A stretch of DNA of 61,191 bases from a virus, in the IMG/VR virus record IMGVR_UViG_3300033150_001094, positions 1 through 61,191 of that record. One strand, written 5' to 3'. Each line of letters starts with the position of its first letter. The first letter of the stretch is position 1. A model generated the notes under the pieces. It had not been told where the DNA came from, made no database searches, and was given only the letters and a program-made list of their open reading frames with translations. Shown here piece by piece: positions 6,962 through 56,382 of this stretch. The position numbers and the translations under genes are program-made.

Positions 6962-7760
6962 GGTGTTCCTCCTCAACGAGATCGTGCCTTTGCTAGACGC
7001 CAACCCGCACACCACTTACGTCGAACCCTTCGGCGGCGGTGCCAGCATTCTGCTCCATAAGCGCCCCGCCACCAACGAAGTCTACAACGACCTAGACGAT
7101 AACCTCTACGCCCTCATCAAAACCCTCTCCGACCCCCTCAAAGGCCGCCAACTCCAACGCCGCCTCCACTTCACCCTCCACTGCCGCAAACTCTACGAAG
7201 AAGCACGACAACAACTCAAGAAACCTAACCTCCACACTTACCAACGCGCCTTCTACTTCTACATCGTCCTGCTCAACTCCTTCGCCCGAAAGCCCGGCCA
7301 CGGCTTCCGTATCTCTAAGTCCCATACCTCCGTCGCCCAAGGCTACAGAAACCAAATCAGCAAACTGCATACCATCATCAATAGACTCAAACACGTCACC
7401 GTCGAACACCTCGACTTCCAGCAAGTTATCACCCGCTACGACTCCCCCTCCACCATCTTCTACATCGACCCACCATACCACCCAGATACCAGACCCACCG
7501 CCCCCAAATGCTACCACCACGAAATGTCCCACCAAGATCACCTAAGACTCACCAACACCCTCCTCAATATCAAAGGCCGCGCTATCCTCTCCTGCTACTT
7601 CCACCACGCATACCAACCACTCATCGACCTCAAACACTACTCCCGTATCGACCTCAAACATACCCCCAAAACCCTCAACCCCAATAACCCACCACGCACC
7701 GAAACCCTCCTCATCCACCCAGATATCATCAAACCCCAACCGACACTCCCAAACTTCTAA
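6912..7760 (+). CDS. dam: Dam-type (D12 class) N6-adenine DNA methyltransferase
   Basis: LPYYGGK, EPFGGGAS (motif I) and FYIDPPY (motif IV). The sense strand is extremely G-poor from about 7000 onward. Confidence 0.85.
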   Translation: MLSTKPRQSVLPYYGGKVFLLNEIVPLLDANPHTTYVEPFGGGASILLHKRPATNEVYNDLDDNLYALIKTLSDPLKGRQLQRRLHFTLHCRKLYEEARQQLKKPNLHTYQRAFYFYIVLLNSFARKPGHGFRISKSHTSVAQGYRNQISKLHTIINRLKHVTVEHLDFQQVITRYDSPSTIFYIDPPYHPDTRPTAPKCYHHEMSHQDHLRLTNTLLNIKGRAILSCYFHHAYQPLIDLKHYSRIDLKHTPKTLNPNNPPRTETLLIHPDIIKPQPTLPNF

Positions 7761-7791
7761 CGCCCACACCCCCCCAGGCCCACACCCCCCG

Positions 7792-7880
7792 ATCCCGCAC
7801 ACCCCGATTCTTCACACCCGACTTTCACGCCCCCATTTTTGCACGCCCTGATTCTTCACACCCTGATTTTTTCACGCTGG
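7792..7880 (+). repeat. degenerate 14-16-nt direct repeats (iteron-like)
   Basis: GATTCTTCACACCC (7806 and 7850), GACTTTCACGCCC (7820), CATTTTTGCACGCCC (7834) and GATTTTTTCACGC (7865). They are preceded by ATCCCGCACACCCCGATTC, which resembles the promoter-like motif. Confidence 0.6.
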
Positions 7881-7971
7881 AAAGAGGGGAATCTCATCTA
7901 AGGCCCGGCAACTGGCTTGGGGGGCCTCCCCCCCCATCGGTTGTTGGTCTGAGTGCGATTGTGTGGGGTAT

Positions 7972-8005
7972 AAAAAACCCCCCAGGAGCCATAGCTCCCA
8001 GGGGG
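7972..8005 (-). terminator. intrinsic terminator of cassette A
   Basis: On the minus strand an imperfect GC-rich hairpin (CCCCCUGGGAGC-UAUG-GCUCCUGGGGGG, 5-bp core plus 3 G-C pairs across an internal loop) is followed by UUUUUU. Confidence 0.65.
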
Positions 8006-8027
8006 TGGTAGGGGGGAGAAATATGGG

Positions 8028-8246
8028 CTAGTTGGAAATCGATTCGTAGTAGTCAACAGCCTTGGCAATGTGTTTGAAAAGCCATTTGATTCGGGCGTCT
8101 TTCTTCAGCGCCCTGATGATAGCACCGCGGAGTTCATCCGGTCCCTCCATAGTGTGGGTGTCACCGTTGGCGTTAATAAAGCCCACCAATTCTCCTTGCA
8201 CATACACAGAAATCCCCAAAACATAGGTGATTTCAATGCGAGCCAT
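8028..8246 (-). CDS. cassette A protein (72 aa, hypothetical)
   Basis: MARIEITYVLG... with SD AAGGAGA upstream. It has its own promoter-like motif and terminator. Confidence 0.6.
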   Translation of the reverse strand: MARIEITYVLGISVYVQGELVGFINANGDTHTMEGPDELRGAIIRALKKDARIKWLFKHIAKAVDYYESISN

Positions 8247-8296
8247 TTTGTGTCTCCTTGTGCTAGTGTTTGCCCCCTACCACCATTTGTCTGCGG

Positions 8297-8313
8297 GTAA
8301 GATTGGTGCGGGA
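8297..8313 (-). promoter_or_regulatory. conserved promoter-like motif, copy A
   Basis: The minus strand reads TCCCGCACCAATCTTAC, 51 nt upstream of the cassette A ATG. Confidence 0.55.
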
Positions 8314-8347
8314 TTTTTCCCGTTGGTGGGGGCGTCCACCAACACAT

Positions 8348-8377
8348 AAAAAACCCCACCCGAACATATGTCCGGGT
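8348..8377 (-). terminator. intrinsic terminator of cassette B
   Basis: Minus strand has ACCCGGAC-AUAU-GUUCGGGU followed by a U6 run. Confidence 0.7.
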
Positions 8378-8406
8378 AGGGCTGGCAGGAGGATATGAAG
8401 AAAACA

Positions 8407-8667
8407 TTACAACAACCCAGCCAAAACAAGTGCCGACACCACAGAGTGCGTCATGCAGTTTTCGCACCAGCCAGCGCGCTGGTCCGGTTCGTAATAGTAA
8501 ACCGTCCGGCACAGCCTACAGATTGCCGGAACAACAGTGTCATCCTCATACAGATACAGTTCACACAGCTCGTCAAGGGATTCATACCCCTCGGTTTCCA
8601 GCAGTTCTTCCAGTAAACTCCTCCTTATTTCCTGTTTTGCTCTTTGAAGTTCTTTTTTGGTAACCAT
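8407..8667 (-). CDS. cassette B protein (86 aa, zinc-ribbon-like)
   Basis: MVTKKELQRAKQEI... with CRLC...CENC. SD is AAAGGAGAAAGCC-ATG. The longer ORF-track version (to 8928) would run through the promoter and terminator repeats. Confidence 0.6.
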   Translation of the reverse strand: MVTKKELQRAKQEIRRSLLEELLETEGYESLDELCELYLYEDDTVVPAICRLCRTVYYYEPDQRAGWCENCMTHSVVSALVLAGLL

Positions 8668-8719
8668 GGCTTTCTCCTTTGTCTTGAATCTTGCCCCTCC
8701 TGCCACTATTGCTGAGCGA

Positions 8720-8736
8720 GCAAGATTGGTGCGGGA
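8720..8736 (-). promoter_or_regulatory. conserved promoter-like motif, copy B
   Basis: TCCCGCACCAATCTTGC, 53 nt upstream of the ATG at 8667. Confidence 0.55.
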
Positions 8737-8866
8737 TTCTTGCCGTCGACAGGGGGCTTGCCGCCGCTTGCCTGCCTCCACCGCGTGTACGGCACTCGTC
8801 ACAATTCGAGCAACTGTTTCCCCATAAAGGGTTCGCCAACTGGCCGCCTGGTCTATCCGGGCGCGC

Positions 8867-8904
8867 AAAAAAACGCCCCGCCCAAGCAACCGCCTGGGCA
8901 GGGC
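8867..8904 (-). terminator. intrinsic terminator of cassette C
   Basis: A 10-bp stem (GCCCUGCCCA / UGGGCGGGGC) is followed by GUUUUUUUGCGCGC. Confidence 0.7.
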
Positions 8905-8924
8905 TGGCAGGGGGAAAGCTGTTG

Positions 8925-9155
8925 TCATTTGTCAAACTCTACAAATCCAGTATCTGTTGGCCAATAGGTGCCTGAACAGCACTCTTTGATTCGCCTGTAT
9001 TCCACCCGCCATTTTAGGTGTCTGTCGCCATAATCGGGTGCAAGCGTTAGAACTACTTTTGCCAAATCTCTTTTGGTCGGCTTTTTTTGCCACTCCCAAG
9101 CTCGGTCATCTAGGACCAAGCCAGTCTGTGCATCAGTAATGACCAAGTAATACAT
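8925..9155 (-). CDS. cassette C protein (76 aa, hypothetical)
   Basis: MYYLVITDAQTG... with SD AAAGGAGGGAAAA-ATG. Confidence 0.6.
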   Translation of the reverse strand: MYYLVITDAQTGLVLDDRAWEWQKKPTKRDLAKVVLTLAPDYGDRHLKWRVEYRRIKECCSGTYWPTDTGFVEFDK

Positions 9156-9204
9156 TTTTCCCTCCTTTGTCTTTTCTTTGCCCCCTGCCACCATTTCTGA
9201 GCAA

Positions 9205-9221
9205 GCAAGATTGGTGCGGGA
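9205..9221 (-). promoter_or_regulatory. conserved promoter-like motif, copy C
   Basis: TCCCGCACCAATCTTGC, 50 nt upstream of the ATG at 9155. Confidence 0.55.
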
Positions 9222-9350
9222 TGCTTGCCGTTGGTCGAGCAGCATCACCCAACACAGCATCGCTTGCCGCGCCTGCCGCCTCAAACCAACTGACGACTGA
9301 CCTTTCCACATCTAGGTTCCACAACTGGCCTGCCGCACGGATGCGCGCAC

Positions 9351-9386
9351 AAAAAAACCCTGGCCGGATTGTAGTGCCGACCAGGG
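9351..9386 (-). terminator. intrinsic terminator of cassette D
   Basis: A CCCUGG...CCAGGG hairpin is followed by UUUUUUUGUGCGCGC. Confidence 0.7.
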
Positions 9387-9406
9387 CGCGCGTGCGGCAA
9401 AGACAG

Positions 9407-9721
9407 CTAGTCCGCCTGCGACTCGGAGGTGAGGATCGAATGCAGGTTGGCGAAGATCGGCGTGGCGTGCCTGCCCACGCTGCAGGGAATCAGATCGCCA
9501 CCAACCTCCAGGTAGCTGCGCCCCCTCACCCTCACAAGCGTACCACCCAGCACGCTTGCGGCGAAACCCAGAGCCTCGGTGTAGATGCGCTCGGACAGGT
9601 GCTCTGGTTTCGCGCTGATGGTGATTGAGTCGGAATCAATGTTGACTATAAGACTTTCGCCAACATAGACTCCCAACCGACCAGGACGCCACTTCAGATG
9701 CGTGTTCTTTGGGATATACAT
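9407..9721 (-). CDS. cassette D protein (104 aa), possibly AbrB/SpoVT-like fold
   Basis: MYIPKNTHLKW...SLIVNIDSDSITISAKPE...VRVRGRSYLEVGGDLIP. It is a paralogue of cassette E. SD is GGAGGTCAAGGTC-ATG. Confidence 0.6.
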   Translation of the reverse strand: MYIPKNTHLKWRPGRLGVYVGESLIVNIDSDSITISAKPEHLSERIYTEALGFAASVLGGTLVRVRGRSYLEVGGDLIPCSVGRHATPIFANLHSILTSESQAD

Positions 9722-9807
9722 GACCTTGACCTCCAACACGAGTGTGTCGGCCACCCACAGCCCCCTATGGGCTGTTGAACAGCAGCCGAGACAACATGTT
9801 GACGCAG

Positions 9808-9824
9808 GCAAGATCAGTGCGGGA
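9808..9824 (-). promoter_or_regulatory. conserved promoter-like motif, copy D
   Basis: TCCCGCACTGATCTTGC, 87 nt upstream of the ATG at 9721. Confidence 0.5.
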
Positions 9825-9828
9825 AACA

Positions 9829-10272
9829 TCACGCTGCCACCAAACCGAGCAGCCACGCACCCGCCGACGGCAGCGGGCACCGCACATCGGCGGTGCACAA
9901 CTGGCCTGCCAGACCACATGCCTGGCCAGCCCATCGGCGCAAAAAAACATCCGAGCGTGCCGAAGCACGCCCGGATTTGTGCCCTGCGGCCAGATCACGC
10001 GTCGGCCAGCTGCACTCGTGGTCACCCGGCGTCGCGGGGATGAGCTGCCCGTCCAGCTCCATGTAGCTCCGCCCCCGGACACGAACCACTTGGCCACCCA
10101 ACACCACGGCCGCCAAATTCAACGTCTCGTTGTAAATCCGGTCCGAGACCTCAGGCGGTTTGGGCACGATCACAAGCCCATCCCGTGTCGCGGTCACAAT
10201 CGGCTGCCCAGATGCACGCACTTGCATTGCGGCAGCACCCCACTGAACACTCGAGCCCTTGGGAATGTACAT
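9829..10272 (-). CDS. cassette E protein (paralogue of D); the ORF has no stop before its own terminator
   Basis: MYIPKGSSVQW...VRVRGRSYMELDGQLIP aligns with cassette D for about 80 aa. The frame then stays open through the terminator hairpin to 9829. Confidence 0.5.
   Translation of the reverse strand: MYIPKGSSVQWGAAAMQVRASGQPIVTATRDGLVIVPKPPEVSDRIYNETLNLAAVVLGGQVVRVRGRSYMELDGQLIPATPGDHECSWPTRDLAAGHKSGRASARSDVFLRRWAGQACGLAGQLCTADVRCPLPSAGAWLLGLVAA
9941..9976 (-). terminator. intrinsic terminator of cassette E (lies inside the open frame)
   Basis: AUCCGGGCGUGC-UUCG-GCACGCUCGGAU is followed by GUUUUUUUGCGCC. Confidence 0.65.
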
Positions 10273-10345
10273 GACCGAATCCCCTACATGCGTTGCAACC
10301 CACCGCGGGCTGCCGACCAGCAGCCAACTCACTATGCCCACGCAA

Positions 10346-10362
10346 ACAGGATTGGTGCGGGA
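10346..10362 (-). promoter_or_regulatory. conserved promoter-like motif, copy E
   Basis: TCCCGCACCAATCCTGT, 74 nt upstream of the ATG at 10272. Confidence 0.5.
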
Positions 10363-10630
10363 ATCCCAAACAACATGCCACCACAGACGCCCATGCCTAA
10401 AAATTGAGCACGCCCATGTTCGCCACACATCTGTGTGGCCACAACTGGCAACCACCCCACCGTTGCACCTAAACCCTTGCAGGCAAAGCACTTAGCCGCG
10501 GCCACGACCACGCCCCCTATCGGAAAGGTTGGACATTTGCGTACCCGTTGGTGGGGTGTTTTACCGGGATTTCGGATACCAATCCGCCAAAACGTGTCCA
10601 ACCCTGGGCCACTCACGGGGTGCCCTCGGA

Positions 10631-10679
10631 TTGCGTAATTTTTACGCAAAATGCCCCAAAAGGGTGGGAAAATTGCGTA
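10631..10679. promoter_or_regulatory. TTGCGTAA / TTACGCAA palindrome plus a third half-site
   Basis: TTGCGTAA-TTT-TTACGCAA occupies 10631-10649 and TTGCGTA occupies 10673-10679. The middle arm can pair with either outer arm. Confidence 0.45.
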
Positions 10680-10689
10680 TTTTTTGGGC

Positions 10690-10940
10690 AGATCCCCTGC
10701 GTCACCGCGTAGGGGGTGTGGTATTTGGGCGTTGTTAGGGCCGTTTGGGTGGTTTGGGCGTGGTTAGTTACAACGGGGTGGCGTGGTGAGTTATGGGTGA
10801 GTGGGGGTATGGGGGTATCGAGAGATACTGGGCGCGGGGCGTAGTTGGTGTGATTTGAGGGGTAGGGGCGTAGCGTATCTCGAATCGGGGCGTTTTCTGG
10901 GGCGTGGCAGGTGGGGGAAGCGTGAATGTGGCGCAAAAGA
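10690..10940 (-). repeat. G-depleted (on the minus strand) tract with reiterated ACGCCC / CACACC units
   Basis: The plus strand has only 5-6 C per 60 nt (hand count of lines 10741 and 10801). The minus strand repeats CACGCCCC, ACGCCCCG, CTACGCCCC, ACCACGCC and AACGCCCAAA. Confidence 0.6.
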
Positions 10941-10995
10941 TAGGGGGTAGCCGACATGAAGCCGACCACCCCCACGGGCACGAGGGGAGAACGTG

Positions 10996-11244
10996 TTATC
11001 TGAGGTCACCTGGGTCCACAGCTACTATGAGGGCGTCGCCGTGTGCCCATGCTTTGCGTATCTCATATCCAGGTGCCCTGCGTGTGGTTTGGCACTTCGG
11101 GCCTAGATACTGGTCGCGGACGATCAGGCGTGACTCGGGCAGGGGCGGGCCGTGACCAGAGGGCACCGCGACGTATCCGATCCCCCCGTTCCACCACGCC
11201 AGTGGCCCACGTTCAATCCAGTATATGTCAAAAGTTCTTTTCAT
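10996..11244 (-). CDS. hypothetical protein (82 aa)
   Basis: MKRTFDIYWIERGPLAWWNGGIGYVAVPSGHG... The start overlaps the upstream stop (ATGA). Confidence 0.5.
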   Translation of the reverse strand: MKRTFDIYWIERGPLAWWNGGIGYVAVPSGHGPPLPESRLIVRDQYLGPKCQTTRRAPGYEIRKAWAHGDALIVAVDPGDLR

Positions 11245-11368
11245 GCGTCACCCTCCGTGCTGGTGGAGATGTCGCTGGGTTCGTGCCCGTTCGGGGTTCG
11301 CCCGTTTCTGCCGGGCACCGGAGCGTGCCGTCTTCAAGAATGACAATCTCAAACGTGTCGTTGGCCAT
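11228..11368 (-). CDS. hypothetical small protein (46 aa)
   Basis: MANDTFEIVILEDGTLRCP... is the internal Met of ORF 11228..11743. Tentative. Confidence 0.3.
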   Translation of the reverse strand: MANDTFEIVILEDGTLRCPAETGEPRTGTNPATSPPARRVTHEKNF

Positions 11369-11372
11369 TGCG

Positions 11373-11678
11373 TTACCTCCTTGTGACGAGGAGCTTTCTA
11401 CCTTGGCGGCGAACCCTCCACCCGCGGGCACGGGCAGTTCGCTCAACCAAGCGTTCCGAATACCGTTGCTGAACCTGGCGGACGCGTTCGACGCAGTCCC
11501 GCTCAACTTCCGCGTTGTCACCGCGAATGGTGGCGATGACACGCCCACCGTCGATAAACTGAATGACACCCGCGACCACGCGGGTGTCCAGCCCCACATC
11601 CTTGGCGGCCGCCACGATTTCTCTGGCGTTTTTCTGCCGCCACTCAACCCGCACTGTGTTGATTTCCCAACACGGCAT
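11373..11678 (-). CDS. hypothetical protein (101 aa)
   Basis: MPCWEINTVRVEWRQKNAREIVAAAKDVGLD... The Arg-rich C-terminal tail may be out of frame. Confidence 0.45.
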   Translation of the reverse strand: MPCWEINTVRVEWRQKNAREIVAAAKDVGLDTRVVAGVIQFIDGGRVIATIRGDNAEVERDCVERVRQVQQRYSERLVERTARARGWRVRRQGRKLLVTRR

Positions 11679-11681
11679 GCT

Positions 11682-11924
11682 TCACCCCTTTCTCTTTTGC
11701 AGTGCCACGATTCTCGCCACGTACTCCAGCCAGAGCAGAGCACGTTTCACCCTGCGGCGCGGGATGGCCGCACCGTCCAACCACGAAGACAACAACAACC
11801 GCGCTTGAAACGTGCGCGGCCCCCGATCCGCGCAGCCGTGGGTGTAATCAAGAACTCGCGCAGCGCGCTCTTTGAGTTTCATGCGGGGGCAGCCGATGCA
11901 GCGCCACTCCACGGCCATTGCCAT
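11682..11924 (-). CDS. hypothetical protein (80 aa)
   Basis: Has a CIGC...HGC cluster and a basic helical C-terminus. Confidence 0.4.
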   Translation of the reverse strand: MAMAVEWRCIGCPRMKLKERAARVLDYTHGCADRGPRTFQARLLLSSWLDGAAIPRRRVKRALLWLEYVARIVALQKRKG

Positions 11925-11995
11925 TCTCCTTGTTTGGCCGAGCCCCCGCGCGACTCGGCACCCCGTGATTCCCGGCGCGGGCGGGATACTAACCG

Positions 11996-12832
11996 TCAGA
12001 CCTCGAAAGTCCGCCGCTCGGCAGGCAGGATTTCCACGGCGTTGCCGAGCACGCGGCCGAGTTCGTCACTCAAGCTTGAGAGCTGCGCTGGGCTCGTGCG
12101 CAGCGTTTCGGGTGCCACACCAGAGATGAGATTTCGGGCGCGGCGCACCAAGTCCGCCAACTCTTCGTCGTCCGTTACGTTGCGGACATCGAAGAGCCGG
12201 AGCCATTCGCGTAGCACATTGAATGTGCCACTAGTGATCCGCTCCGTTTCGCCACGCTTCACCTTGTCCAGGCGCGTCTTCAGCTCCGCGACGGCCTGAG
12301 CGAAACCGGCACGCAGCCCCTCGCGGATTTCCTCAACCACGCTGTCGAATTGCCGGCGCGATTCAGGATCGGGTGCCGGCGCGAACTGGTAGATCGACGC
12401 CAACACTTCAAACTTGTTGGCGTACTCTTCGGGGTCGGCGTAGTCCGACCAGTCAAACAAGTCGCCCAATCTGCGTTGGGCGTCCTGGCGGATATCATCC
12501 CACTCTGCCAACAACATTGAGCGGGCACGCTGAAAGTCCATGCGCGCCTGCTCCAACTCAGTATCCACAATCTCCCTGGCGTCCTGCGGAAACACGTGGA
12601 CAGCCGGCCCCAAGTTGTACACAGCCAGCTGCCCGATTCTCTTGCGGGCACGTCTGGCGGCCCCCCTAGCATACGCCACCGCACTAGCCCGCATCACCTC
12701 TTTCGATGCGTGCAGGCTGGTGCGATCCGCAGCGTTAGCATCGGCGGCCTCCTCTGCCGCCTTGCGGGCGGTCCGCCATTCAGCAGGCACACGGAACCGC
12801 AGATGAAGAACATTCATCGGTCGGTACATCAT
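11996..12832 (-). CDS. hypothetical helical protein (278 aa) downstream of the AAA+ gene
   Basis: Long acidic and helical ORF. No family assigned with confidence. Confidence 0.6.
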   Translation of the reverse strand: MMYRPMNVLHLRFRVPAEWRTARKAAEEAADANAADRTSLHASKEVMRASAVAYARGAARRARKRIGQLAVYNLGPAVHVFPQDAREIVDTELEQARMDFQRARSMLLAEWDDIRQDAQRRLGDLFDWSDYADPEEYANKFEVLASIYQFAPAPDPESRRQFDSVVEEIREGLRAGFAQAVAELKTRLDKVKRGETERITSGTFNVLREWLRLFDVRNVTDDEELADLVRRARNLISGVAPETLRTSPAQLSSLSDELGRVLGNAVEILPAERRTFEV

Positions 12833-12840
12833 ACGTCCTC

Positions 12841-13176
12841 CTACACATCGAGGGCACGCCCCGTGTTCGGCCGGGGCTTGCGATACAAACCAGGCACGGA
12901 CGCCGACAGGTAACGCCCGTCAGCCTCCGTGCGCCTACGCTCAATTCCCTCCGGATCGGCCACAGCCACCGGCGTAACGAATTTGGCGGCTGCTTCCAGC
13001 GAGAGTTCCAGCTCCCACGCCGTTTGACAGCACGCCTTGATCTCGGCGGCCGTCCACGACGCGTGCTTTGGCTTGGGCTGTTCGCCCAAGCCGTACTGGC
13101 TTGCCGTCGGACAGTTCGGAAATGACTGCCAACGCCTGCGCCACCCGCCCCTCGGTTTGACCGACCAACGATCCAT
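12841..13176 (-). CDS. AAA+ lid-like C-terminal fragment (different frame from 12941..13534)
   Basis: ...SWTAAEIKACCQTAWELELSLEAAAKFV... looks like the SGAEI-type lid helix. The N-terminal third of this ORF is out-of-frame overlap. Confidence 0.4.
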   Translation of the reverse strand: MDRWSVKPRGGWRRRWQSFPNCPTASQYGLGEQPKPKHASWTAAEIKACCQTAWELELSLEAAAKFVTPVAVADPEGIERRRTEADGRYLSASVPGLYRKPRPNTGRALDV

Positions 13177-13534
13177 AGAGCGCCGCTAGGTCAAACTGAA
13201 TCGTCAAGACGCCGGCACTCGCGCCAGCCGCCTTGCACACTAGCGACTTGCCCGTTCCGGGGTGCCCAAGAAAAAGCACCCCGGAACTTTCGGTATCCTG
13301 CATATAGCTAAGCAACCTGCCAAGCACCCGCTGAGAGGTGCCAGACGTGTCGGAAGTCCCGGACGTGGCGCCAGCCATGGCTTTTTCGATTTCGTCGATG
13401 AACACGACGGCCTTGTAACCCCCGCGGCCGGTCAGTTTTCGTTCCAGATACTCTTTGACGTTGGCAAGCCCCACCACGTCAGAGAGTGTCTCGCGGGGCT
13501 CGTAGATGGAAAGACCCGCGGTATCCTTCACCAT
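12941..13534 (-). CDS. AAA+ ATPase core with Walker B placed upstream of Walker A; C-terminus runs out of frame
   Basis: DVVGLANVKEYL, then KAVVFIDEIEKAMAG..SGTSQRVLGRLLSYMQD, then GVLFLGHPGTGKSLVCKAAG...LVGQTEGRVAQAL. The last ~55 aa are low-complexity. Confidence 0.6.
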   Translation of the reverse strand: MVKDTAGLSIYEPRETLSDVVGLANVKEYLERKLTGRGGYKAVVFIDEIEKAMAGATSGTSDTSGTSQRVLGRLLSYMQDTESSGVLFLGHPGTGKSLVCKAAGASAGVLTIQFDLAALYGSLVGQTEGRVAQALAVISELSDGKPVRLGRTAQAKARVVDGRRDQGVLSNGVGAGTLAGSSRQIRYAGGCGRSGGN

Positions 13535-14175
13535 CCGGGGTCAATCCCGTTCGTGGCCTGCCTCAGAGCAATTGCCGCGTGTTGCTCCGCGGCAAACGCA
13601 GGCAGGCCGCGCAGCAGCTCTACCGCCTGCGCGATCTGGTCGTCAGACGGAGACTGCCGCTGCACCTCCGCGCCGTTTTTGCGCGCCTCTTCGTAGGCGC
13701 GCCGCAAGGATTCGTCCAGTTCCCTGATCATCTGCCGGAGCTGTTGCCGCGTTGGTAACGGCAAAGGCGCCGTGACGACATCCGTGCTTTCCAGGCATGG
13801 GAGCGGCGCCCAGTAGGGCGTCGCAAAGATAATCATTACACCCGCGCGCTTTAGAGTGTCGCGCGCGGCCCAGAATGCTGTACAACCCGCCGCCCCAAGC
13901 TCTTCAAGTAGAGCCCGCGCGTGCGGAATCACAATGATCGTCCGGCGCGGCATCCTGGCCGCCAACGCCGGAAGAGCCGTCAGGTCACCGCCGAGTGCAT
14001 CGAACTCAGCGACAATCGACGCCCCCTCGTCCGTCACCGGCCTGGCGCCGGTGATTGGATCGTACATGACCACTGGCGCGTCGTCATAAATCGACGCGTC
14101 AGCAAGCGCGCCGGGATCGGGCGTCTCCACCGCCAACAGTGGCACGCCCGATTTCCTGTAGCTAACAACGTCCAT
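13528..14175 (-). CDS. degenerate AAA-like N-terminal domain protein
   Basis: GVPLLAVETPDPG (degenerate P-loop position), RRTIIVIPH, GVMIIFATP...LPLPTRQQLRQMI, and a lid-like LRGLPAFAAEQHAAIALRQA. Confidence 0.5.
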   Translation of the reverse strand: MDVVSYRKSGVPLLAVETPDPGALADASIYDDAPVVMYDPITGARPVTDEGASIVAEFDALGGDLTALPALAARMPRRTIIVIPHARALLEELGAAGCTAFWAARDTLKRAGVMIIFATPYWAPLPCLESTDVVTAPLPLPTRQQLRQMIRELDESLRRAYEEARKNGAEVQRQSPSDDQIAQAVELLRGLPAFAAEQHAAIALRQATNGIDPGW

Positions 14176-14250
14176 CCCCTATAAATAAAGCTGTCTGGCC
14201 GAAGTGGGGGGTGGCACTAGGCCAGACTATCCCCTACCCCTCAGCAGCAA

Positions 14251-14267
14251 GCAACTATGGTGTGGGA
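14251..14267 (-). promoter_or_regulatory. promoter-like motif facing the AAA+ operon
   Basis: The minus strand reads TCCCACACCATAGTTGC, 76 nt upstream of the ATG at 14175. It abuts the plus-oriented copy back to back. Confidence 0.45.
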
Positions 14268-14286
14268 TTCCACGCACAATCTCGCG
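14268..14286 (+). promoter_or_regulatory. promoter-like motif, plus-oriented
   Basis: TTCCACGCACAATCTCGCG. Confidence 0.4.
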
Positions 14287-14371
14287 TGGGGCGCCGGGCG
14301 GACCGAAGCACCCGATAGCTGCCGGCGGCCATCCACTCAACTGGCCGTAGAACACAACTGGCCCACACTAT

Positions 14372-14391
14372 TCCACCACACCAACCTTGCC
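14372..14391 (+). promoter_or_regulatory. promoter-like motif, plus-oriented, upstream of the beta-solenoid operon
   Basis: TCCACCACACCAACCTTGCC, 42-58 nt upstream of the candidate starts. Confidence 0.45.
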
Positions 14392-18838: not shown

Positions 18839-21800
18839 CTAATAGGCCCCCGATTGCAGTTCTTGAATCATACGAGAAATTTGCTGTGTCGGGCTGAGCC
18901 GTTCCGGCGGCGTGTTGAACATCTCTCGAAGCTGCGCCTCTATCAGCTGGTCCACCATTTTGCTCTTGCCGCGAGGCTGGGCGTACCCACGCCGCACTCT
19001 CTCCTTCTGGATTGCGTCCATCAGGGCGTCCAATGCCCGGATATCCTGTTGGGCGGCCTGCCCTGCCGCCGTGGCCTTCCACGTCTCTGGCACGTAATAG
19101 TACATGCCGCTGCGGGCCGCTCTCGCGTTTTCCAGGATGCGTTGTAAGGCGTCTCGTGCGTCGTACAGCTTTTGCATCTCCAGATCATAGTACCCCGTCT
19201 TGATACCTGTCACCAGGTCCACGACCGGCCCTACGCGAAGTTTCAAGTCACCTATATCCTGGACCATCCGCGAAATCCCCTGTCCAGGATCAATGCCGGC
19301 GATTTCCAGCATGGTTCGCAAAGTGCTGGCCAGCCGGGCGAGCGGTGTCATCGAAATCATGGCGTCCACCGTGGGCTGCCCGTAAAGACCGCTGGTGTAC
19401 TCAAGCGGCCTGCCAGTGTACGGTTCGATCCCAAACAACAACCTCGTGGTGCCTGGAATGAGGGGGTGCATACGTGAGATCATTTTCAGGCTGGTCCGCA
19501 TTGCTGCCATCGGAACGCCACCCGCTGGCGTGGGCAAGAAGAACATGCCCACGTCTTCCATCGGCAGCCCCCACTGCCGGATCACCATTTGCCGCCCTGG
19601 TTCGCCCCCCAAGTGCTCGGCAATTCCCTCTGGCACTGGCACAGCAAACATTTCCCTCATCCACTCGGGCAGTTCTGGCTGTTGAGCCTGTAGTCTGTGC
19701 ATCGCCCGTGTAACCTGAGCTGGGCCACTACGCCAGTCCAGCAGCAACCTGGGCAGCATATACCCCAGGTTCTGCCTCAGCCACGAGTAGAACATGAAGA
19801 TGTTGCCGTACCGGCGTTCCAGTGGACTTAGGCGACCGTAGTTGTATTGCACCTGCCAAACCAATTCGACTGCCTGGGCGGGCGTAAATCCTTTGCGACG
19901 TGCAGCAATATACATTGCCCCCCGCATGGTCGATTCGACAACTCGGTACGCATGTTCGCCTGCGGCTGCCCACGCCTTAGCGATAGTGGCCGCACCACTC
20001 AGCGCCGGCACCTTGCTGACCACGCTTTTCTGTACGTCCTGTCGCGCGCGAGTAAGCAATCCCCTCGGAAGCAATCTCTGCGGGATCGTGTAATACTGTG
20101 AAGCCGCTTGTGTGGCACGGCTGGCCCCCTGGATCGCACGGTAAAACTCCATCTCGTTGGCATAGGGTGGCCTCGTGCCTTTGCTCAAATGGCTTGTGAA
20201 CTCGCCCAGCGCCTTGAAGAACTCTCTGGGGGTGTACGGTGCATCGGCCATCAGGGCCATAACCGTAGCTGACGTGGTGTTCCTCACATGGAAGGAAGGA
20301 AACGGCTGCGTCCACATGAACCTTGTGACTTCCATCACCTTCCCTATCGCCTTCTCCAACCCGTACTGTACCGAACGGTCCTCGGAGAAGTCCAATACCT
20401 TTTGCATCCGCGTAATCATCTCCTTCGGTACGTACAGGCGCTTCTCCAGCCCCCTTGGCACCGAAGTGACGGGTTCTACGGTACGCCACCAGTCGGTCGT
20501 TAGCTCCCTCAGAAAGCTGCCTCCCATTGAGGAACCGCCGAACCGTAGCCGACGCATCCCTTCATCGAGCCGTACCCACTCGTCACGCCCGATCCCCCAC
20601 GTTTGCATGATGCGGCGTTTCAAACCCACAGCCTTGCGCACCCGACGCTTTATCCGCCCACTGGCCGCAGGGTGTGCCGAGAAGAAACGTTCCACGTCAA
20701 CCTCGCTGGCTTCCTGCGGATTGAATGGCAAAATGGTCTTGGCCAAAGCACGCCTAACGCCGAAAACCAGCCCCAACTTCGCCGCGCCCAAGTGGAACAT
20801 TTCTCGGTACGATTCCATCACCTCGGGACGAAAGAGCACGCCGGGTGAGTGGTGTTCCTTCAAGTAGTCAATGGCGACGCCAACCGCGCCGCCGCGGCTG
20901 AGGTATTCAGCAAGTGACGAGACGCCATACAACCGATTTGGTGTCAGCCTGCGAAATGACGCCCAGTCTTCTGGCGTGATACCCCACGCCTTGCCTTCCG
21001 CGGGCACTTCGGCACTTCTGCTTTGCAAAAGACGCCAGAAGTTCTTTCTCTCTTGTTCATGGTTGAACGCCGCAAGATGCCGCACCAACTCGTCACGTCC
21101 AGCCAATCGTTTGGTCAAAAACCTCTTGATGTACCAGTCAGGCAGCGGCGCCGACAACAACCACACATTCCGTTGCCATGCTGGCGCGGGCGATCTGAGC
21201 CATTCAACCAGATATCTGTCGAACGCGTAGAGTGATCTCTTGCCTTCCTGCGTCAGACGGCGACGGCGAATGTCAATGGCCAGATTGTCGTAGGCTTCTT
21301 CGCCAACGCGATACAAGAAATACTTGTCAACGGCGTCCTTCTGGAGCCGTTCTGGCAATCGGGGAATCGGCCCTGCCTCCTCTAACGGTGACGCAGGAAA
21401 CCGGACCTCTGTTGGGTTGACGGCGGGCAGCCGGATAAGTTCCGTGTTCTCGCCAACTGTCCGGCCAAGGTAGTATGTGCCCTCATCATCCATCCCCATC
21501 ACGTAACCAGAGATGCCTTTTTCGCCCACATCCAAGGTTACGGCGGTGCCTGGCGTCCACCACGTTCTCTCGCCGTTCGCCTCAAAGAGCCAGCCGGCTC
21601 GCGTGATCTCTGGGTAGGCGTCTTTTACAGCCGGGCGAGTAAGCACGGGGTCACGAGCAATCTGATTCACCGCCACGGTCGGCAACCGGATTTTCTGGCC
21701 GCGCATCACCGGCCAGAGGGTTGGCGCGTAGCGTTCCTCAAGCACCTTGAATCGTGGCATGTATCGGCTCAGGAACGCATCCAAAAGCTCAGGCACCTTG

Positions 21801-23554
21801 ATGCCTGAATTGCTCATAGCTTGGCGCAGGGCGGCCGTGGGCTCACGCAAGGTGTTGTTCAGGTAATTCTCTACCCTCCACAACAAGTCAGCCACGTCGC
21901 CAGCATGTTCCGTCGTTTCCGGCACCCCCATGAGAAATTCGCCCATCTTGCGGGCAAACTTCATGGTGTCTTCACTTCCTCGCTTGTACGTTTCGCCAAC
22001 CGTGCGTACTAGCTCGTCGTATGTCTTGACCAGCTCAGGATGGTTGGCTGCCTGGGCACGTGCTCGGAGCCCTTCGTAGGTGCCCCTTAGACTACCGAGC
22101 AATTCCGACGCGACGTATTGAGTGTCCAGCAGCAAATAGTTGAGCCGCATCATTGCGTCGGCAGCGTACTGCCGGGCAGCCGACTCCATTGGGTTGGCCG
22201 CCGAGCCAGTGGTCCAGTGGAAGAAGCTCAACAGCCCGGACGTGACACGGTTATTTACCAGCCATTCGGCCAACTGTTGTGCTCGCTCACCAGTTCCCAA
22301 CTCAACCAACGCCTCGTGTTGCGGCACAATGGTCGTCCAGGGCCACGCAGTCCTGAAAGCCAACAGGGCACGGCCTCTTTCACCAGTCCACTCTTCAACT
22401 TTGCCCATCGGGGAAACAGGTGCCAGTTCCGCCGCCTCTCTTGTAGCAAGTCCTGGTTGACGCCCAATGTTTCGCAACAGCGATTCAACCTGCGTCCGCA
22501 CCCCGCCACCGATTGATTCCAGCAGAAACTGGTGCGGTTTGGACGCAAACTCTGATTGAGCGACCTGAGTCGCCACCTGGCTCAAGTCACCATTGACGTG
22601 GGGCTTTTCGAGCGTTCTCAAGTACCTGTTCACGTGGGCCGCCAGCTCAGCTACGTCGCTGCCGCCAAAGTCGCTCATGCCGGTCACATCGGCGATCCCG
22701 ACCTTCTTGAGTGCTTCCCGGCCCAGCCTCGCTGCATCATCCCACTGCTCGGCCGCAATCTTGCCAAGCATCTCCTTGCCAACAGACTCGAACGCCCTAG
22801 CGTCTGCCAGTGCTACTGTCAGCGCACCTGCGGCACGGGCCGTCCGTCCGCTGATCCCCCCCAACTTTTCCGCGCCTTGCAAGATTCTCAGTGCCCGGTT
22901 AGACGGCCCAGCAATCACCGGCAACCCCGGCGGAACGGCGAATATCTCGACGCCCAGCCCCAAGATGTCGTATATCGCATCGTAGGGGTCCGCCAGCACG
23001 TGGAATCCGGGCTTGTTTTTTGGTGCGCCCCACTTTTCCAACACTTCACGGCCCGTGATGTGACGCTCGGGCACCTTCCACGGGAAAGTTGCCTCCCAGA
23101 ATCCCTTCAAATAGCTCTCCGAGAACGGCAGCAACACCATCAAGTGCTCTGGCTCGCGGGCCAAGATTCCACGGAAGGCCGCAAACGGTTTGTCGATCAC
23201 GTTGCCGATCACATACAACGCGCTCACCGCAGAACGGCCGACCGCCGCCAAAGCTCTTGACAGGTGTTCGTCTTCCCTGGCGGCACCCGCCAACGGCGAG
23301 TTTTGCTTCCGCAACAGCTCAGTCAGTTCCGCGTGAGGCTGAACCAGCGGCTCATAGCCCCCCAGTTGCATGGCCTGTTCGTAAATGGTGGGGGCTTTGT
23401 TGCTCGCCAGGTATGGCGTGAAGTCAGCGTATGGCGCCATGTCGGGGACTCGCGGCGCAATGGCGCGAAAGATTTGCTCTTTCTGCTCACGCGGCAAGAG
23501 CGCAAGCACCTGGTCATTGCCCAGCAAGTCTTGCAAGTCAAAAGGTAGTGTCAT
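18839..23554 (-). CDS. 1571-aa virion protein candidate (internal/ejection-type by position)
   Basis: This is the longest ORF and the last gene of the virion block. It is preceded by small membrane proteins and A/G/Q/M-rich proteins. I saw no polymerase, transglycosylase or peptidase motif. Confidence 0.7.
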   Translation of the reverse strand: MTLPFDLQDLLGNDQVLALLPREQKEQIFRAIAPRVPDMAPYADFTPYLASNKAPTIYEQAMQLGGYEPLVQPHAELTELLRKQNSPLAGAAREDEHLSRALAAVGRSAVSALYVIGNVIDKPFAAFRGILAREPEHLMVLLPFSESYLKGFWEATFPWKVPERHITGREVLEKWGAPKNKPGFHVLADPYDAIYDILGLGVEIFAVPPGLPVIAGPSNRALRILQGAEKLGGISGRTARAAGALTVALADARAFESVGKEMLGKIAAEQWDDAARLGREALKKVGIADVTGMSDFGGSDVAELAAHVNRYLRTLEKPHVNGDLSQVATQVAQSEFASKPHQFLLESIGGGVRTQVESLLRNIGRQPGLATREAAELAPVSPMGKVEEWTGERGRALLAFRTAWPWTTIVPQHEALVELGTGERAQQLAEWLVNNRVTSGLLSFFHWTTGSAANPMESAARQYAADAMMRLNYLLLDTQYVASELLGSLRGTYEGLRARAQAANHPELVKTYDELVRTVGETYKRGSEDTMKFARKMGEFLMGVPETTEHAGDVADLLWRVENYLNNTLREPTAALRQAMSNSGIKVPELLDAFLSRYMPRFKVLEERYAPTLWPVMRGQKIRLPTVAVNQIARDPVLTRPAVKDAYPEITRAGWLFEANGERTWWTPGTAVTLDVGEKGISGYVMGMDDEGTYYLGRTVGENTELIRLPAVNPTEVRFPASPLEEAGPIPRLPERLQKDAVDKYFLYRVGEEAYDNLAIDIRRRRLTQEGKRSLYAFDRYLVEWLRSPAPAWQRNVWLLSAPLPDWYIKRFLTKRLAGRDELVRHLAAFNHEQERKNFWRLLQSRSAEVPAEGKAWGITPEDWASFRRLTPNRLYGVSSLAEYLSRGGAVGVAIDYLKEHHSPGVLFRPEVMESYREMFHLGAAKLGLVFGVRRALAKTILPFNPQEASEVDVERFFSAHPAASGRIKRRVRKAVGLKRRIMQTWGIGRDEWVRLDEGMRRLRFGGSSMGGSFLRELTTDWWRTVEPVTSVPRGLEKRLYVPKEMITRMQKVLDFSEDRSVQYGLEKAIGKVMEVTRFMWTQPFPSFHVRNTTSATVMALMADAPYTPREFFKALGEFTSHLSKGTRPPYANEMEFYRAIQGASRATQAASQYYTIPQRLLPRGLLTRARQDVQKSVVSKVPALSGAATIAKAWAAAGEHAYRVVESTMRGAMYIAARRKGFTPAQAVELVWQVQYNYGRLSPLERRYGNIFMFYSWLRQNLGYMLPRLLLDWRSGPAQVTRAMHRLQAQQPELPEWMREMFAVPVPEGIAEHLGGEPGRQMVIRQWGLPMEDVGMFFLPTPAGGVPMAAMRTSLKMISRMHPLIPGTTRLLFGIEPYTGRPLEYTSGLYGQPTVDAMISMTPLARLASTLRTMLEIAGIDPGQGISRMVQDIGDLKLRVGPVVDLVTGIKTGYYDLEMQKLYDARDALQRILENARAARSGMYYYVPETWKATAAGQAAQQDIRALDALMDAIQKERVRRGYAQPRGKSKMVDQLIEAQLREMFNTPPERLSPTQQISRMIQELQSGAY

Positions 23555-46681: not shown

Positions 46682-48221
46682 TCCTCACGTACATACCCGT
46701 TGCGTCATCGTCGGGCAAAGCCTCTGCTACTGCGCACACACGGTCACCACTGCTGGCCACTTTGGACACTCCACCCACTGACGTATCAGTCCCGTCGCCG
46801 AACGTCAACTCATTGTCAGACGACAAGAAATTGTACGCAGCAAACTTCGTCCATGCCGCTGAGCGTTGCACCTTGCTCAGCCGGAACTCACCCACTTCAC
46901 CCATTGCAGTGTTCGACTCGCCTGAGTCACCGATGTATAGCTGGTCCAATGAGTCTTGAGCGCCCGTCGTGGTGCCTGAAACGTCTTTTGCTACACCGTC
47001 CAATTCCAGCCTACTGTTGTTAATGTCCGAATCATTGCCACCTGGAATCGAAACGACCAGATAGTGATAATCGGTGTCCTCAATCTCGTTCAGCACGTCT
47101 ACGTTCCATGACCGCTGCGAGAGCCCCAAGATCAAATCCACTGTCTCAACGCCATACGAGAGGTACGCCGTCCCACCAGTATTCAAGCTGAATGCAATCG
47201 GGCCGCTGTCGCCGACGCCCGGCGTGGCAAACAACCACTCGACAGTCCATGCCGTCACGTTGGTAAGAGGATCGCACGCGATGCAGCCATCAAATGCCCC
47301 TAATGCGTTAAAGAATTGCCCTTTGCCCACCAATGAATCGATCTCTTGACTCTGCTTCCCAGACTTGGCGCCATCCATCCCCACTGTAGCCGCTACCTTC
47401 GAGCTGTCGCCAGGCTTATCGGCCATATGGGACACCCACAGATAGTCAGAGTCCCACACGCTGGCCGCATTTTCCAGTCCTTGCAACGCGGGTGGTCCAT
47501 ACTTCATCAAAAGTAGAGTGCCACTCGTGGATATGCTCGGTACTTGAACGAAAAAGGCACCGCTGGCGGCGCCATCACTGATACTGAATGAGACTTTTTC
47601 GTGAGGCAGCGGTGTATCAGTATCCGTGATGGCATAAAAGCAAATGTCTGAGCCATCCGGCAGGGCGTATGCACCAATCTCCGTGTCGTTCGTAAACGCC
47701 ACCAAAAGGGGGAACTTGGTAAGGGTGCTATCAACGTTATCACCCTTGACTGTAATCACCCGATTTCGCCGCCGGTAAGCGCCTGCAAGCCGCAACTTCG
47801 ATCCGGCCGTTACGCTGGGCGCCCTGGGTAGTCGAATCAGCCCCCGTTCAACCACAAAGGCAATGTCGTTCTGTCTCCATGGGTGTGGTTCTCGGCCGGG
47901 AATTAACAACCTGGGCCGCTGAGCGTACCTGTCCGCGATGCCCACAACATTCTTGCCGCTGCTGTCAAGCTCTACCCACGTTGCCTGATGGTAGGGAATG
48001 TCAAACCCCGCGGCATTTCGGACGGCACGAAGCACCATATTGCGCTGTGGATAGAAACTGTCAGCGGGCGCTCGCCACTCAAACAGTTTCCCCGCAAATC
48101 CCGACCCAAAATCCGAAGATACCAATCTCTCTTTTCTTGCATACGTCGTGTGCGGATGAAAGGGTAAGACTGCCTCTTGCCACATGATCGCACTCCACAA
48201 AAAAGGGGGAACCTGCCACAA
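46653..48221 (-). CDS. DUF2341-like plus LamG/concanavalin-like domain protein
   Basis: DICFYAITDTDTPLPHEKVSFSISDGAASGAFFVQVPSISTSGTLLLMKYG, then a lectin-fold-like C-terminal half (YHYLVVSIPGG...SRLELDGV). Confidence 0.5.
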   Translation of the reverse strand: MWQVPPFLWSAIMWQEAVLPFHPHTTYARKERLVSSDFGSGFAGKLFEWRAPADSFYPQRNMVLRAVRNAAGFDIPYHQATWVELDSSGKNVVGIADRYAQRPRLLIPGREPHPWRQNDIAFVVERGLIRLPRAPSVTAGSKLRLAGAYRRRNRVITVKGDNVDSTLTKFPLLVAFTNDTEIGAYALPDGSDICFYAITDTDTPLPHEKVSFSISDGAASGAFFVQVPSISTSGTLLLMKYGPPALQGLENAASVWDSDYLWVSHMADKPGDSSKVAATVGMDGAKSGKQSQEIDSLVGKGQFFNALGAFDGCIACDPLTNVTAWTVEWLFATPGVGDSGPIAFSLNTGGTAYLSYGVETVDLILGLSQRSWNVDVLNEIEDTDYHYLVVSIPGGNDSDINNSRLELDGVAKDVSGTTTGAQDSLDQLYIGDSGESNTAMGEVGEFRLSKVQRSAAWTKFAAYNFLSSDNELTFGDGTDTSVGGVSKVASSGDRVCAVAEALPDDDATGMYVRIAGDDFGLV

Positions 48222-51434: not shown

Positions 51435-51454
51435 GCCTGTTCTCCCTTTCTTTG

Positions 51455-51470
51455 TCCACACCAATCTTAC
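51455..51470 (+). promoter_or_regulatory. promoter-like motif upstream of the replication block
   Basis: TCCACACCAATCTTAC, 86 nt upstream of the ERF ATG. Confidence 0.5.
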
Positions 51471-51555
51471 TTGGCAACACCTGTTAGGGCGGTGCTATTT
51501 TATACTTGTTGGACCAAAGGCACAAGCCCATTCCACACTTTTAGGGGGACTTGCA

Positions 51556-56364: not shown

Positions 56365-56382
56365 TCCCCACACCAATCTTTG
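56365..56382 (+). promoter_or_regulatory. promoter-like motif upstream of the exonuclease gene
   Basis: TCCCCACACCAATCTTTG, 42 nt upstream of the ATG at 56424. Confidence 0.5.

Follow-up and report, generated by a model that had tools for sequence, protein, structure and literature searches.

Five small leftward genes, each with a repeated upstream motif and a strong intrinsic terminator, in an uncultivated tailed phage

The viral DNA considered here is the IMG/VR record IMGVR_UViG_3300033150_001094, analysed over its whole length of 61,191 nucleotides (nt), which is referred to below as the window. It represents a tailed-phage genome, with genes for a large terminase, a portal/adaptor, a helicase, two DNA methyltransferases, RuvC and the recombination proteins ERF and YqaJ. 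Between positions 7972 and 10,365, five small open reading frames (ORFs), named A to E from left to right, follow one another on the minus strand (Table 1). This locus probably forms the end of the leftward early/middle region of an uncultivated phage, a tail of accessory genes organised as five monocistronic units. A sequence-only reading had described it as five autonomous cassettes of promoter, gene and terminator built on one reusable scaffold; its observations turned out to be largely right and its interpretation partly right.

Each of the five genes is preceded by a copy of the same motif. When up to two mismatches are allowed, the full motif TCCCGCACYRATCYTG is present in five minus-strand copies, accompanied by one weak stray match, where 0.2 would be expected, and none of 100 shuffled sequences matched this. 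As had been claimed, the copies end 50-87 nt upstream of the respective ATG and every gene has its own Shine-Dalgarno (SD) site, which is AAGGAG in A-C, GGAGG in D and a weak AGGGGA in E. Behind the genes lie five perfect-stem hairpins followed by six or seven T residues, with T-runs starting at 7977, 8353, 8873, 9357 and 9947 and folding energies (dG) of -18 to -29 kcal/mol. All five correspond to the definition of an intrinsic (Rho-independent) terminator, a GC-rich stem-loop directly followed by a U-tract, and in a scan of both strands they are five of the six strongest such terminators in the window. Terminators B and C are homologous, with paired changes in both arms. The proposed sequence context of these hairpins, UUUUUUUG(U)GCGC, is found in C, D and E, while A and B have UUUUUUAU. 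One hairpin per gene had also been proposed, which holds except that the hairpin of E is inside ORF E as the window reads: this frame runs through its own terminator because the window lacks 28 nt of the gene. In both public contigs that carry the locus, the intact E protein has 101 amino acids (aa) and its gene ends with a TGA at window positions 9995-9997, 18 nt before the hairpin.

Table 1. Coordinates of the features discussed in the text (window numbering, except for the homologues of B, which are given in the numbering of their contigs)
Feature	Position	Strand	Sequence	Details
ORF A	8028-8246	-		72 aa; GC 47.9%; no family match; SD AAGGAG at 8254-8259
ORF B	8407-8667	-		86 aa; four-Cys, zinc-ribbon-like; GC 48.7%
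ORF C	8925-9155	-		76 aa; ORFan; GC 45.5%; SD AAGGAG at 9162-9167
ORF D	9407-9721	-		104 aa; paralogue of E; orphan family; GC 58%
ORF E as the window reads	9829-10272	-		147 aa; frameshifted by the 28-nt deletion at 10010/10011
Motif, cassette A	8298-8313	-	TCCCGCACCAATCTTA	motif scan
Motif, cassette B	8721-8736	-		motif scan
Motif, cassette C	9206-9221	-	TCCCGCACCAATCTTG	motif scan
Motif, cassette D	9809-9824	-	TCCCGCACTGATCTTG	motif scan
Motif, cassette E	10347-10362	-	TCCCGCACCAATCCTG	motif scan
Motif, diverged	14252-14267	-	TCCCACACCATAGTTG	head of ATPase operon
Motif core, g329	14376-14388	+	CCACACCAACCTT	44 nt before divergent g329 start (14433)
Motif core, ERF	51456-51468	+	CCACACCAATCTT	121-nt divergent intergenic region; 88 nt before ERF recombinase ATG (51557)
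Motif core, YqaJ	56368-56380	+	CCACACCAATCTT	83-nt intergenic region; 44 nt before YqaJ-type exonuclease ATG (56425)
5' box, cassette A	8273-8284	-	GGTGGTAGGGGG	12/12 complementary to 8004-8015
3' box, cassette A	8004-8015	-	CCCCCTACCACC	
5' box, cassette B	8696-8707	-	AGTGGCAGGAGG	complementary to 8381-8392; tabulated in the pair as TGGCAGGAGG
3' box, cassette B	8381-8392	-	CCTCCTGCCAGC	tabulated in the pair as CCTCCTGCCA
5' box, cassette C	9181-9192	-	GGTGGCAGGGGG	complementary to 8903-8914; tabulated in the pair as TGGCAGGGGG
3' box, cassette C	8903-8914	-	CCCCCTGCCAGC	abuts terminator stem; tabulated in the pair as CCCCCTGCCA
Terminator A	7972-8006	-		12-13-bp stem; T6; dG -24
Terminator B	8348-8382	-		13-14-bp stem; T6; dG -22
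Terminator C	8867-8904	-		13-bp stem; T7; dG -29
Terminator D	9351-9386	-		10-bp stem; 9-nt loop; T7; dG -18
Terminator E	9941-9976	-		12-bp stem; UUCG loop; T7; dG -23
5' leader hairpin, cassette D	9770-9787	-	GGCTGCTGTTCAACAGCC	
5' leader hairpin, cassette E	10308-10325	-	GGCTGCTGGTCGGCAGCC	type shared with D; read from sequence
Second repeated box	7909-7916	-	GCCAGTTG	after last terminator; no gene behind
Second repeated box	8837-8844	-	GCCAGTTG	upstream of cassette B
Second repeated box	9322-9329	-	GCCAGTTG	upstream of cassette C; 34-nt window gap just upstream (9334/9335)
Second repeated box	9898-9905	-	GCCAGTTG	upstream of cassette D
Second repeated box	10442-10449	-	GCCAGTTG	upstream of cassette E
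Second repeated box (two)	14338-14345, 14355-14362	-	GCCAGTTG	head of ATPase operon
Window deletion	114/115			3 nt
Window deletion	9334/9335			34 nt
Window deletion	10010/10011			28 nt
Window deletion	10292/10293			14 nt
Window deletion	11320/11321			80 nt
Window deletion	13097/13098			134 nt
Window deletion	13539/13540			25 nt
Window deletion	14175/14176			23 nt
Window deletion	14466/14467			101 nt
Homologue of B	L113, 2002-2235			
Homologue of B	L114, 1450-1689			
Homologue of B	L115, 823-1056			

Five separate transcription units are the most economical explanation of this arrangement, because strong terminators bracket the genes and the sole element conserved in all five precedes each of them. 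The alternative of one read-through RNA, made from the promoter of the ATPase operon or from a promoter upstream of E, with the hairpins acting as processing sites or 3' stabilisers, seems very unlikely. The five genes are indeed co-oriented and downstream of the ATPase operon, the efficiency of the terminators is a predicted one, and the complementary sequences that flank some of the ORFs (described below) resemble processing stalks; RNase III sites are known between the early genes of T7. Nevertheless, the hairpins are canonical terminators, with GC-rich stems of 10-13 bp and T6-T7 tails, of a kind nearly absent elsewhere in the genome, and a regulatory motif after each hairpin would serve no purpose in a single transcript.

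The motif is not confined to the array. Its 13-nt core CCRCACCAATCTT has seven copies in the window at no more than one mismatch, against 0.1 expected, and once copy D and the diverged copy at the ATPase head are added, the total rises to nine, four of them outside the array. The position matrix was made from the copies then known, and the ERF and YqaJ sites, which were not in the matrix, were recovered independently. Without exception, the nine copies lie between genes, point the same way as the gene that follows and are 44-88 nt away from its ATG. Three of them sit in divergent intergenic regions, where a promoter must exist, and the regions that logically need one (those after the five strong terminators and the divergent ones at 14.3 kb and 51.5 kb) have one co-oriented copy each. 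Furthermore, the motif is the only element common to the five cassette intergenic regions; in the 160-nt region before A it is present and a second repeated box, GCCAGTTG, is absent. Since every promoter-requiring region has one copy and no other element is shared by the five cassettes, the motif (consensus TCCCRCACCAATCTTGC) is best read as the phage's own non-sigma-70 promoter-class element, of early or middle type, or as overlapping one. It is a genome-wide element rather than a cassette-specific scaffold, because it also heads four other transcription units (ATPase, g329, ERF and YqaJ), and the notion of a single reusable scaffold does not survive this distribution.

With regard to the cargo, two different frames are found in the array: D and E are native paralogues, and A-C are unrelated low-GC ORFs within a common GC-rich frame. 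The D and E proteins are 44-47% identical, in line with the two paralogues that had been noticed. Their composition is native (GC 58-62%; GC at third codon positions, GC3, about 0.73), and the two cassettes share the motif and a hairpin in the 5' untranslated region (UTR), GGCTGCTG...CAGCC. They look like a tandem duplication of a native-composition gene and not like acquired cargo, in which case the gene would have been duplicated together with its promoter element and 5'-UTR hairpin. The label AbrB-like, which the sequence-only reading had given to both, found no support. Neither protein has a Pfam, PHROG or NCBIfam match, and the confident AlphaFold2 model of D (mean predicted local distance difference test score of 88, obtained from only two sequences) shows an internal duplication, each repeat made of four strands and a helix, with no match to AbrB, MazE or SpoVT. 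The best Foldseek match of this model in the PDB has an E-value of 0.3 and none is AbrB-like, while in BFVD it matches only weakly and only uncharacterised phage proteins, some of them with DUF8033. A profile search of the PDB with D/E gave a best E-value of 0.05, to an unrelated protein, and a profile search of IMG/VR returned nothing. A full HMMER search with D alone as profile query, against 1.84 billion representatives, recovered only D, E and one weak, distant match, to an Ig-repeat protein (P0009), which looks spurious and was dropped.

The A, B and C proteins have no mutual similarity, as the earlier description of mostly unrelated ORFs had it. Their genes have a GC content of 45-49% and a GC3 of 0.44-0.59, set against 57% GC for the phage and 58-63% GC with a GC3 of about 0.72 for the neighbouring genes, and such foreign composition suggests that the three ORFs were acquired horizontally. 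B had been taken for a zinc ribbon, and its four Cys residues, invariant across six homologues, are consistent with this; the family also has a near-invariant C-terminal VVSALVLAGL(I/L). Five homologues of B, 45-49% identical to it, occur in other mobile elements. On the three contigs read, they are operonic, with the next gene after 10 nt and with neither motif nor terminator, next to genes for DnaG-zinc-ribbon, ParB or DUF3768 proteins, the last of these directly adjacent in two of the three. No tblastn match to A, B or C was found in phages, nor to B in plasmids, and Rfam, tRNA, PADLOC and NCBIfam searches aimed at the function of the five proteins gave nothing.

The frame around A-C is a shared one: about 80 nt of 5' flank are common to all three (60-77% identical), and B and C also have homologous 3' flanks and terminators. 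The second upstream box that had been reported for A-C is present, and it is the exact reverse complement of a box located between the stop codon and the terminator stem. The perfect Watson-Crick runs of 12 (A), 10 (B) and 10 (C) nt were reached in 0, 1 and 4 of 500 shuffles, respectively, and D and E have no comparable 5'/3' complementarity. Of the seven occurrences of the 9-mer GGYAGGRGG in 61 kb, six coincide exactly with a 5' box or with the complement of a 3' box. At each of the two variable positions the pairing partner has changed as well, from C-G to T-A in A and from G-C to A-T in B (two of the 12 pairs), although this covariation comprises three sequences and two events and its shuffle control is weak (62/500), which tells against our account of the locus.

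At the RNA level, the duplex of the two boxes has a predicted dG of -23 to -27 kcal/mol, whereas pairing of the 3' box with the true SD has one of -7 to -13. When the full-length sequences are folded up to the T-run, the box helix, with a range of about 270-310 nt, is part of the minimum free energy structure at a probability of 0.64-0.98; when the fold of cassette C is extended past the T-tract, the helix is absent. The helix abuts the terminator stem. If the 5' box is transcribed, the mRNAs of A-C may thus be expected to form a 5'-3' panhandle.

The same boxes could instead act in DNA, as short inverted repeats that set the ORF apart as a unit to be inverted, excised or inserted as a cassette by recombination, which appears improbable. 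The 10-12-bp repeats follow Watson-Crick rules throughout, free of G-U, and enclose precisely the ORF and its SD; matching substitutions in the two arms would likewise be expected where crossover requires identity; and if a weak hexamer discussed below were a -10 element, the 5' box would overlap the start site and remain largely untranscribed. Against this, no site-specific recombinase, tyrosine recombinases included, was seen among the scanned proteins or in the precomputed annotations (here, as in the other protein-level negatives below, the scan covered a part of the proteome), orientation and content are identical in the three available versions of the locus, and a 3' box abutting the terminator stem fits an RNA helix stacking on the hairpin. 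Additionally, an integron cassette consists of a promoterless ORF with attC, beside intI/attI/Pc, whereas the units here carry their own expression signals, namely the motif and a T-tailed terminator, and no attC.

Taken at the RNA level, the arrangement suggests the following mechanism. Each unit would consist of a promoter-class element, an SD site, a small ORF and a strong intrinsic terminator that insulates the next unit. In A-C, three unrelated acquired ORFs would be held in a duplicated GC-rich frame, whose mRNA, provided that the 5' box is transcribed, would close as a panhandle stacked on the terminator hairpin, and this panhandle may protect or standardise the expression of whichever ORF lies inside. 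The cargo might be swapped by recombination in the shared flanks, and the phage encodes the recombination proteins ERF and YqaJ. A further-reaching version, which we regard as tentative and on balance doubtful, makes the A-C frame a portable closed-loop cassette: helix and terminator would circularise the mRNA, the frame and not the cargo would set stability and translation, and new cargo would enter through recombination of the flanks, aided by ERF/YqaJ.

Several observations weigh against the main account of five units with a promoter-class motif and, in A-C, a panhandle. No sigma-70-like -35/-10 pair was found in any of the five intergenic regions, nor any such minus-strand site in 7000-12000, and the aligned motif copies contain no TTGACA/TATAAT pair. 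Among the proteins scanned, no phage RNA polymerase or sigma factor that could read the motif was recognised. The aligned copies do have an invariant T 27 nt after the start of the core, inside a weak nATnnT hexamer (AATGGT, AATAGT, CATGTT); if this hexamer is a -10, transcription starts inside the 5' box, the RNA panhandle cannot form and the repeats would act in DNA instead. The best relative reaches only 47% identity in the ATPase, and no close one was found that would show cassette turnover. Moreover, an asymmetric intergenic repeat oriented with transcription is also what repressor operators and stoperators look like (PMC9283540).

This last point leads to the main rival explanation, in which the motif is an asymmetric operator/stoperator-like site for a phage DNA-binding protein and transcription comes from other promoters, for instance near the GCCAGTTG boxes, or from upstream read-through. 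We consider it unlikely, even though nine asymmetric, intergenic, transcription-oriented copies are the signature of the L5-type operators/stoperators (PMC9283540) and no sigma-70 hexamers lie in or beside the motif. The GCCAGTTG box would offer it a candidate start region, since in four of the five cassettes, and also at the head of the ATPase operon, it precedes the motif by 80-108 nt, often with (A/T)GATG about 10 nt further on. What speaks for a promoter-class element is that exactly one co-oriented copy is found wherever a promoter is logically required, that the intergenic region of cassette A has no other shared element that could act as one, and that no repressor or helix-turn-helix protein was identified, though in a scan of only part of the proteome. 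The likeness also has its limits: mycobacteriophage stoperators (PMC9283540) and the start-associated sequences SAS/ESAS (PMC3203893) are likewise short, asymmetric, phage-specific intergenic repeats, with many copies per genome, oriented with transcription and tied to gene starts, but a stoperator is a 13-mer whose repressor is known, and a genome has more than 20 of them, compared with nine copies here, and SAS coincide in part with the ribosome-binding site, at 3-8 nt from the start codon, much closer than the motif.

Other promoter classes were also considered. Speculatively, the weak hexamer might be a -10 used with the conserved box in place of a -35, in a MotA-box-like manner. In the MotA-dependent middle promoters of T4, the MotA box replaces the -35, and with the hexamer at 22-27 nt after the core start as the -10, the conserved box would fall at about -38 to -22. 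Unlike in MotA promoters, the box sequence differs, the -10 is weak (nATnnT) and no MotA/AsiA homologue was detected. A MotA-box match to TTGCTT was dropped, with no -10 at a suitable spacing. Sigma-54 (-24/-12) promoters have an invariant GG at -24 and GC at -12 with the spacing TGGCAC-N5-TTGCW; the motif fits this spacing (CGCAC-N5-TTGCT), but the GG is CG or CA in all nine copies and the GC is lost in A, E, ERF and YqaJ, and this class was rejected. A minus-strand ORF of 1571 aa (18839-23554), which opens a long minus-strand block, was dropped as a candidate phage RNA polymerase, as it lacks a DxDxD motif and matched nothing in Pfam or PHROG. Likewise discarded was a hairpin with the motif in its loop, which was seen only in B and C and without covariation.

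The array resembles the accessory arrays formed by morons and by promoter-early stem-loops (PeSLs), and would therefore be a known kind of layout rather than a new kind of system. PeSLs are terminator-plus-promoter modules of T4-type phages (PMC2839356, PMC4122927), present as repeated intergenic composites in a hyperplastic non-essential region, each before a small ORFan, where they insulate neighbouring units and give homology for modular shuffling. A repeated composite of stem-loop terminator and putative promoter element before ORFans is likewise found here (A, C, D/E). However, the promoter of PeSLs follows the sigma-70 consensus and has the stem-loop within or next to it, whereas here that consensus was not found and 60-200 nt, including further boxes, separate the terminator from the motif downstream of it. 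The present phage is also not T4-like, PeSLs lack complementary 5'/3' boxes around the ORF, and unit-to-unit recombination, which in PeSLs gives indels, replacements or mini-circles, is for this locus a conjecture, its available versions being near-identical.

Morons, reviewed for lambdoid and other temperate phages in PMC3594210, are single accessory genes with their own terminator and a presumed promoter that are absent from relatives. All five genes have their own terminator of hairpin plus T6-T7, and deviant composition is found in A-C and not in D/E. The properties of A-C are thus moron-like, with foreign composition, strong terminators and absence from the distant relatives, and the earlier designation of all five units as moron-type is supported for these three; D/E have native composition and look like a tandem duplication. 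A classical moron is a solitary gene, inserted where close relatives have two neighbouring genes, and is expressed from the repressed prophage. Here five units follow one another and use the general motif of the phage; no integrase, repressor or other lysogeny module was seen among the proteins scanned.

Pairing between the two ends of an mRNA has its own precedents, one of which is the fbi/tac pairing of the hok mRNA. Two others are icaR of S. aureus (PMC3868564) and hbs of B. subtilis (PMC5737220). As in these, a C-rich, anti-SD-like box in the 3' UTR (UCCCCCUG, CCUCCUG) is complementary to the G-rich 5' UTR of the same mRNA, and pairing is predicted to close the transcript, with effects on stability or translation. 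The partner of the 3' motif is the SD itself in icaR, while here the preferred one is a separate upstream box. Furthermore, the pairing in A-C, predicted from sequence, is built into the repeated frame of three unrelated genes.

If confirmed, the array would extend the principle of PeSLs and morons, ORFans in insulated, recombination-prone modules, to an unrelated lineage of uncultivated phages. The modules would here use a non-sigma-70 promoter-class element, and the nine aligned sites could help to find the factor that reads it. The complementary boxes flanking the ORFs are the most original and most testable part, as the cases of 5'-3' UTR pairing described to date all concern individual bacterial mRNAs, while here it would be built into a reusable frame; if the closed-loop version were true, the phage would possess a modular chassis for gene expression of natural origin. 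As for the five products, they are candidates for roles in host takeover or anti-defence, with no finding that points to a specific activity.

The nearest relatives, identified by ATPase-based scans of IMG/VR, GTDB genomes and JGI metagenomes, are only 32-47% identical in the neighbouring ATPase. They contain no motif at up to three mismatches and no terminator-dense array. Relatives that keep the adjacent ATPase-g278-g66 module, which comprise IMG/VR contigs and contigs of metagenome-assembled genomes labelled Chthonomonas, Nitrospirales and Deltaproteobacteria, lack all five genes A-E. When IMG/VR was scanned for the exact motif, the outcome was 14 single matches, which is chance level, and no multi-copy contig; a k-mer hunt that compared the ATPase-upstream regions with the rest of the relatives' loci was too noisy for use. 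The locus and a 4.7-kb structural gene have no nucleotide match in cultured phages (blastn/megablast). The conserved module itself consists of the AAA ATPase and proteins of 278 and 66 aa; it corresponds to 1638-4804 of contig L016 (about 11300-14175 of the window) and is also found in L017-L026, L033-L035, L121, L139 and L143, on viral contigs of about 60-65 kb.

The window is a variant of the JGI metagenome contig 3300033156|Ga0366836_1000746 (61,690 bp), and a second matching JGI contig of 25.5 kb comes from sample 3300033149 (Ga0366834_1012551). Compared with them, the window is free of mismatches but has nine deletions of 3-134 nt (Table 1) and one 27-nt insertion (314-340). The deletion junctions have a microhomology of 0-1 nt and their lengths are mostly not multiples of three; they break the 497-aa AAA ATPase, g66, g329 (at its N-terminus) and gene E. 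The window copy looks damaged or artefactual, unlike natural slippage variants. Because the deletions break genes, the sequence of the intact locus was taken from the public contig L016, with coordinates given in window numbering.

Some minor features surround the array. The sole other terminator of like strength in the window, at about 48166-48204 on the minus strand, has a 17-bp stem, T6 and a dG of -29.6 and lies within the structural-gene block. The 121-nt divergent region at 51436-51556, which separates the minus-strand late block (ATG at 51435) from the ERF gene (ATG at 51557), has its motif copy followed about 20 nt downstream by an extended -10-like TGCTATTTT. The GCCAGTTG box, together with the four motif copies outside the array and the 3' complements of the A-C boxes, goes beyond what the sequence-only reading had noticed. 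It has seven minus-strand copies, all within 7909-14362, and one plus-strand copy in the whole window; a similar repeat in contig L019, GCGTGGGCCAG, was dropped because it is inside a coding region. Between the last cassette terminator with its GCCAGTTG box and the end of the convergent Dam methylase gene (7760), an iteron-like array of seven GGGYGTG units with a spacing of about 15.5 nt occupies 7771-7863 on the minus strand, and it may be a replication origin or a cluster of regulator-binding sites. Further GGGCGTG units are located at 10415 and 10515 (minus strand) and at 10714, 10756 and 10900 (plus strand). The stretch of about 720 nt upstream of cassette E (10273-10995) looks non-coding, with no frame of gene-like GC3 and stops in all six frames, and contains AT-rich TTGCGTA(A/T)TTTTT repeats at 10630-10690 and G-rich repeats at 10712-10800. 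Two genes called by JGI in this stretch (122 and 94 aa), like one of 71 aa in the spacer between D and C, look spurious.

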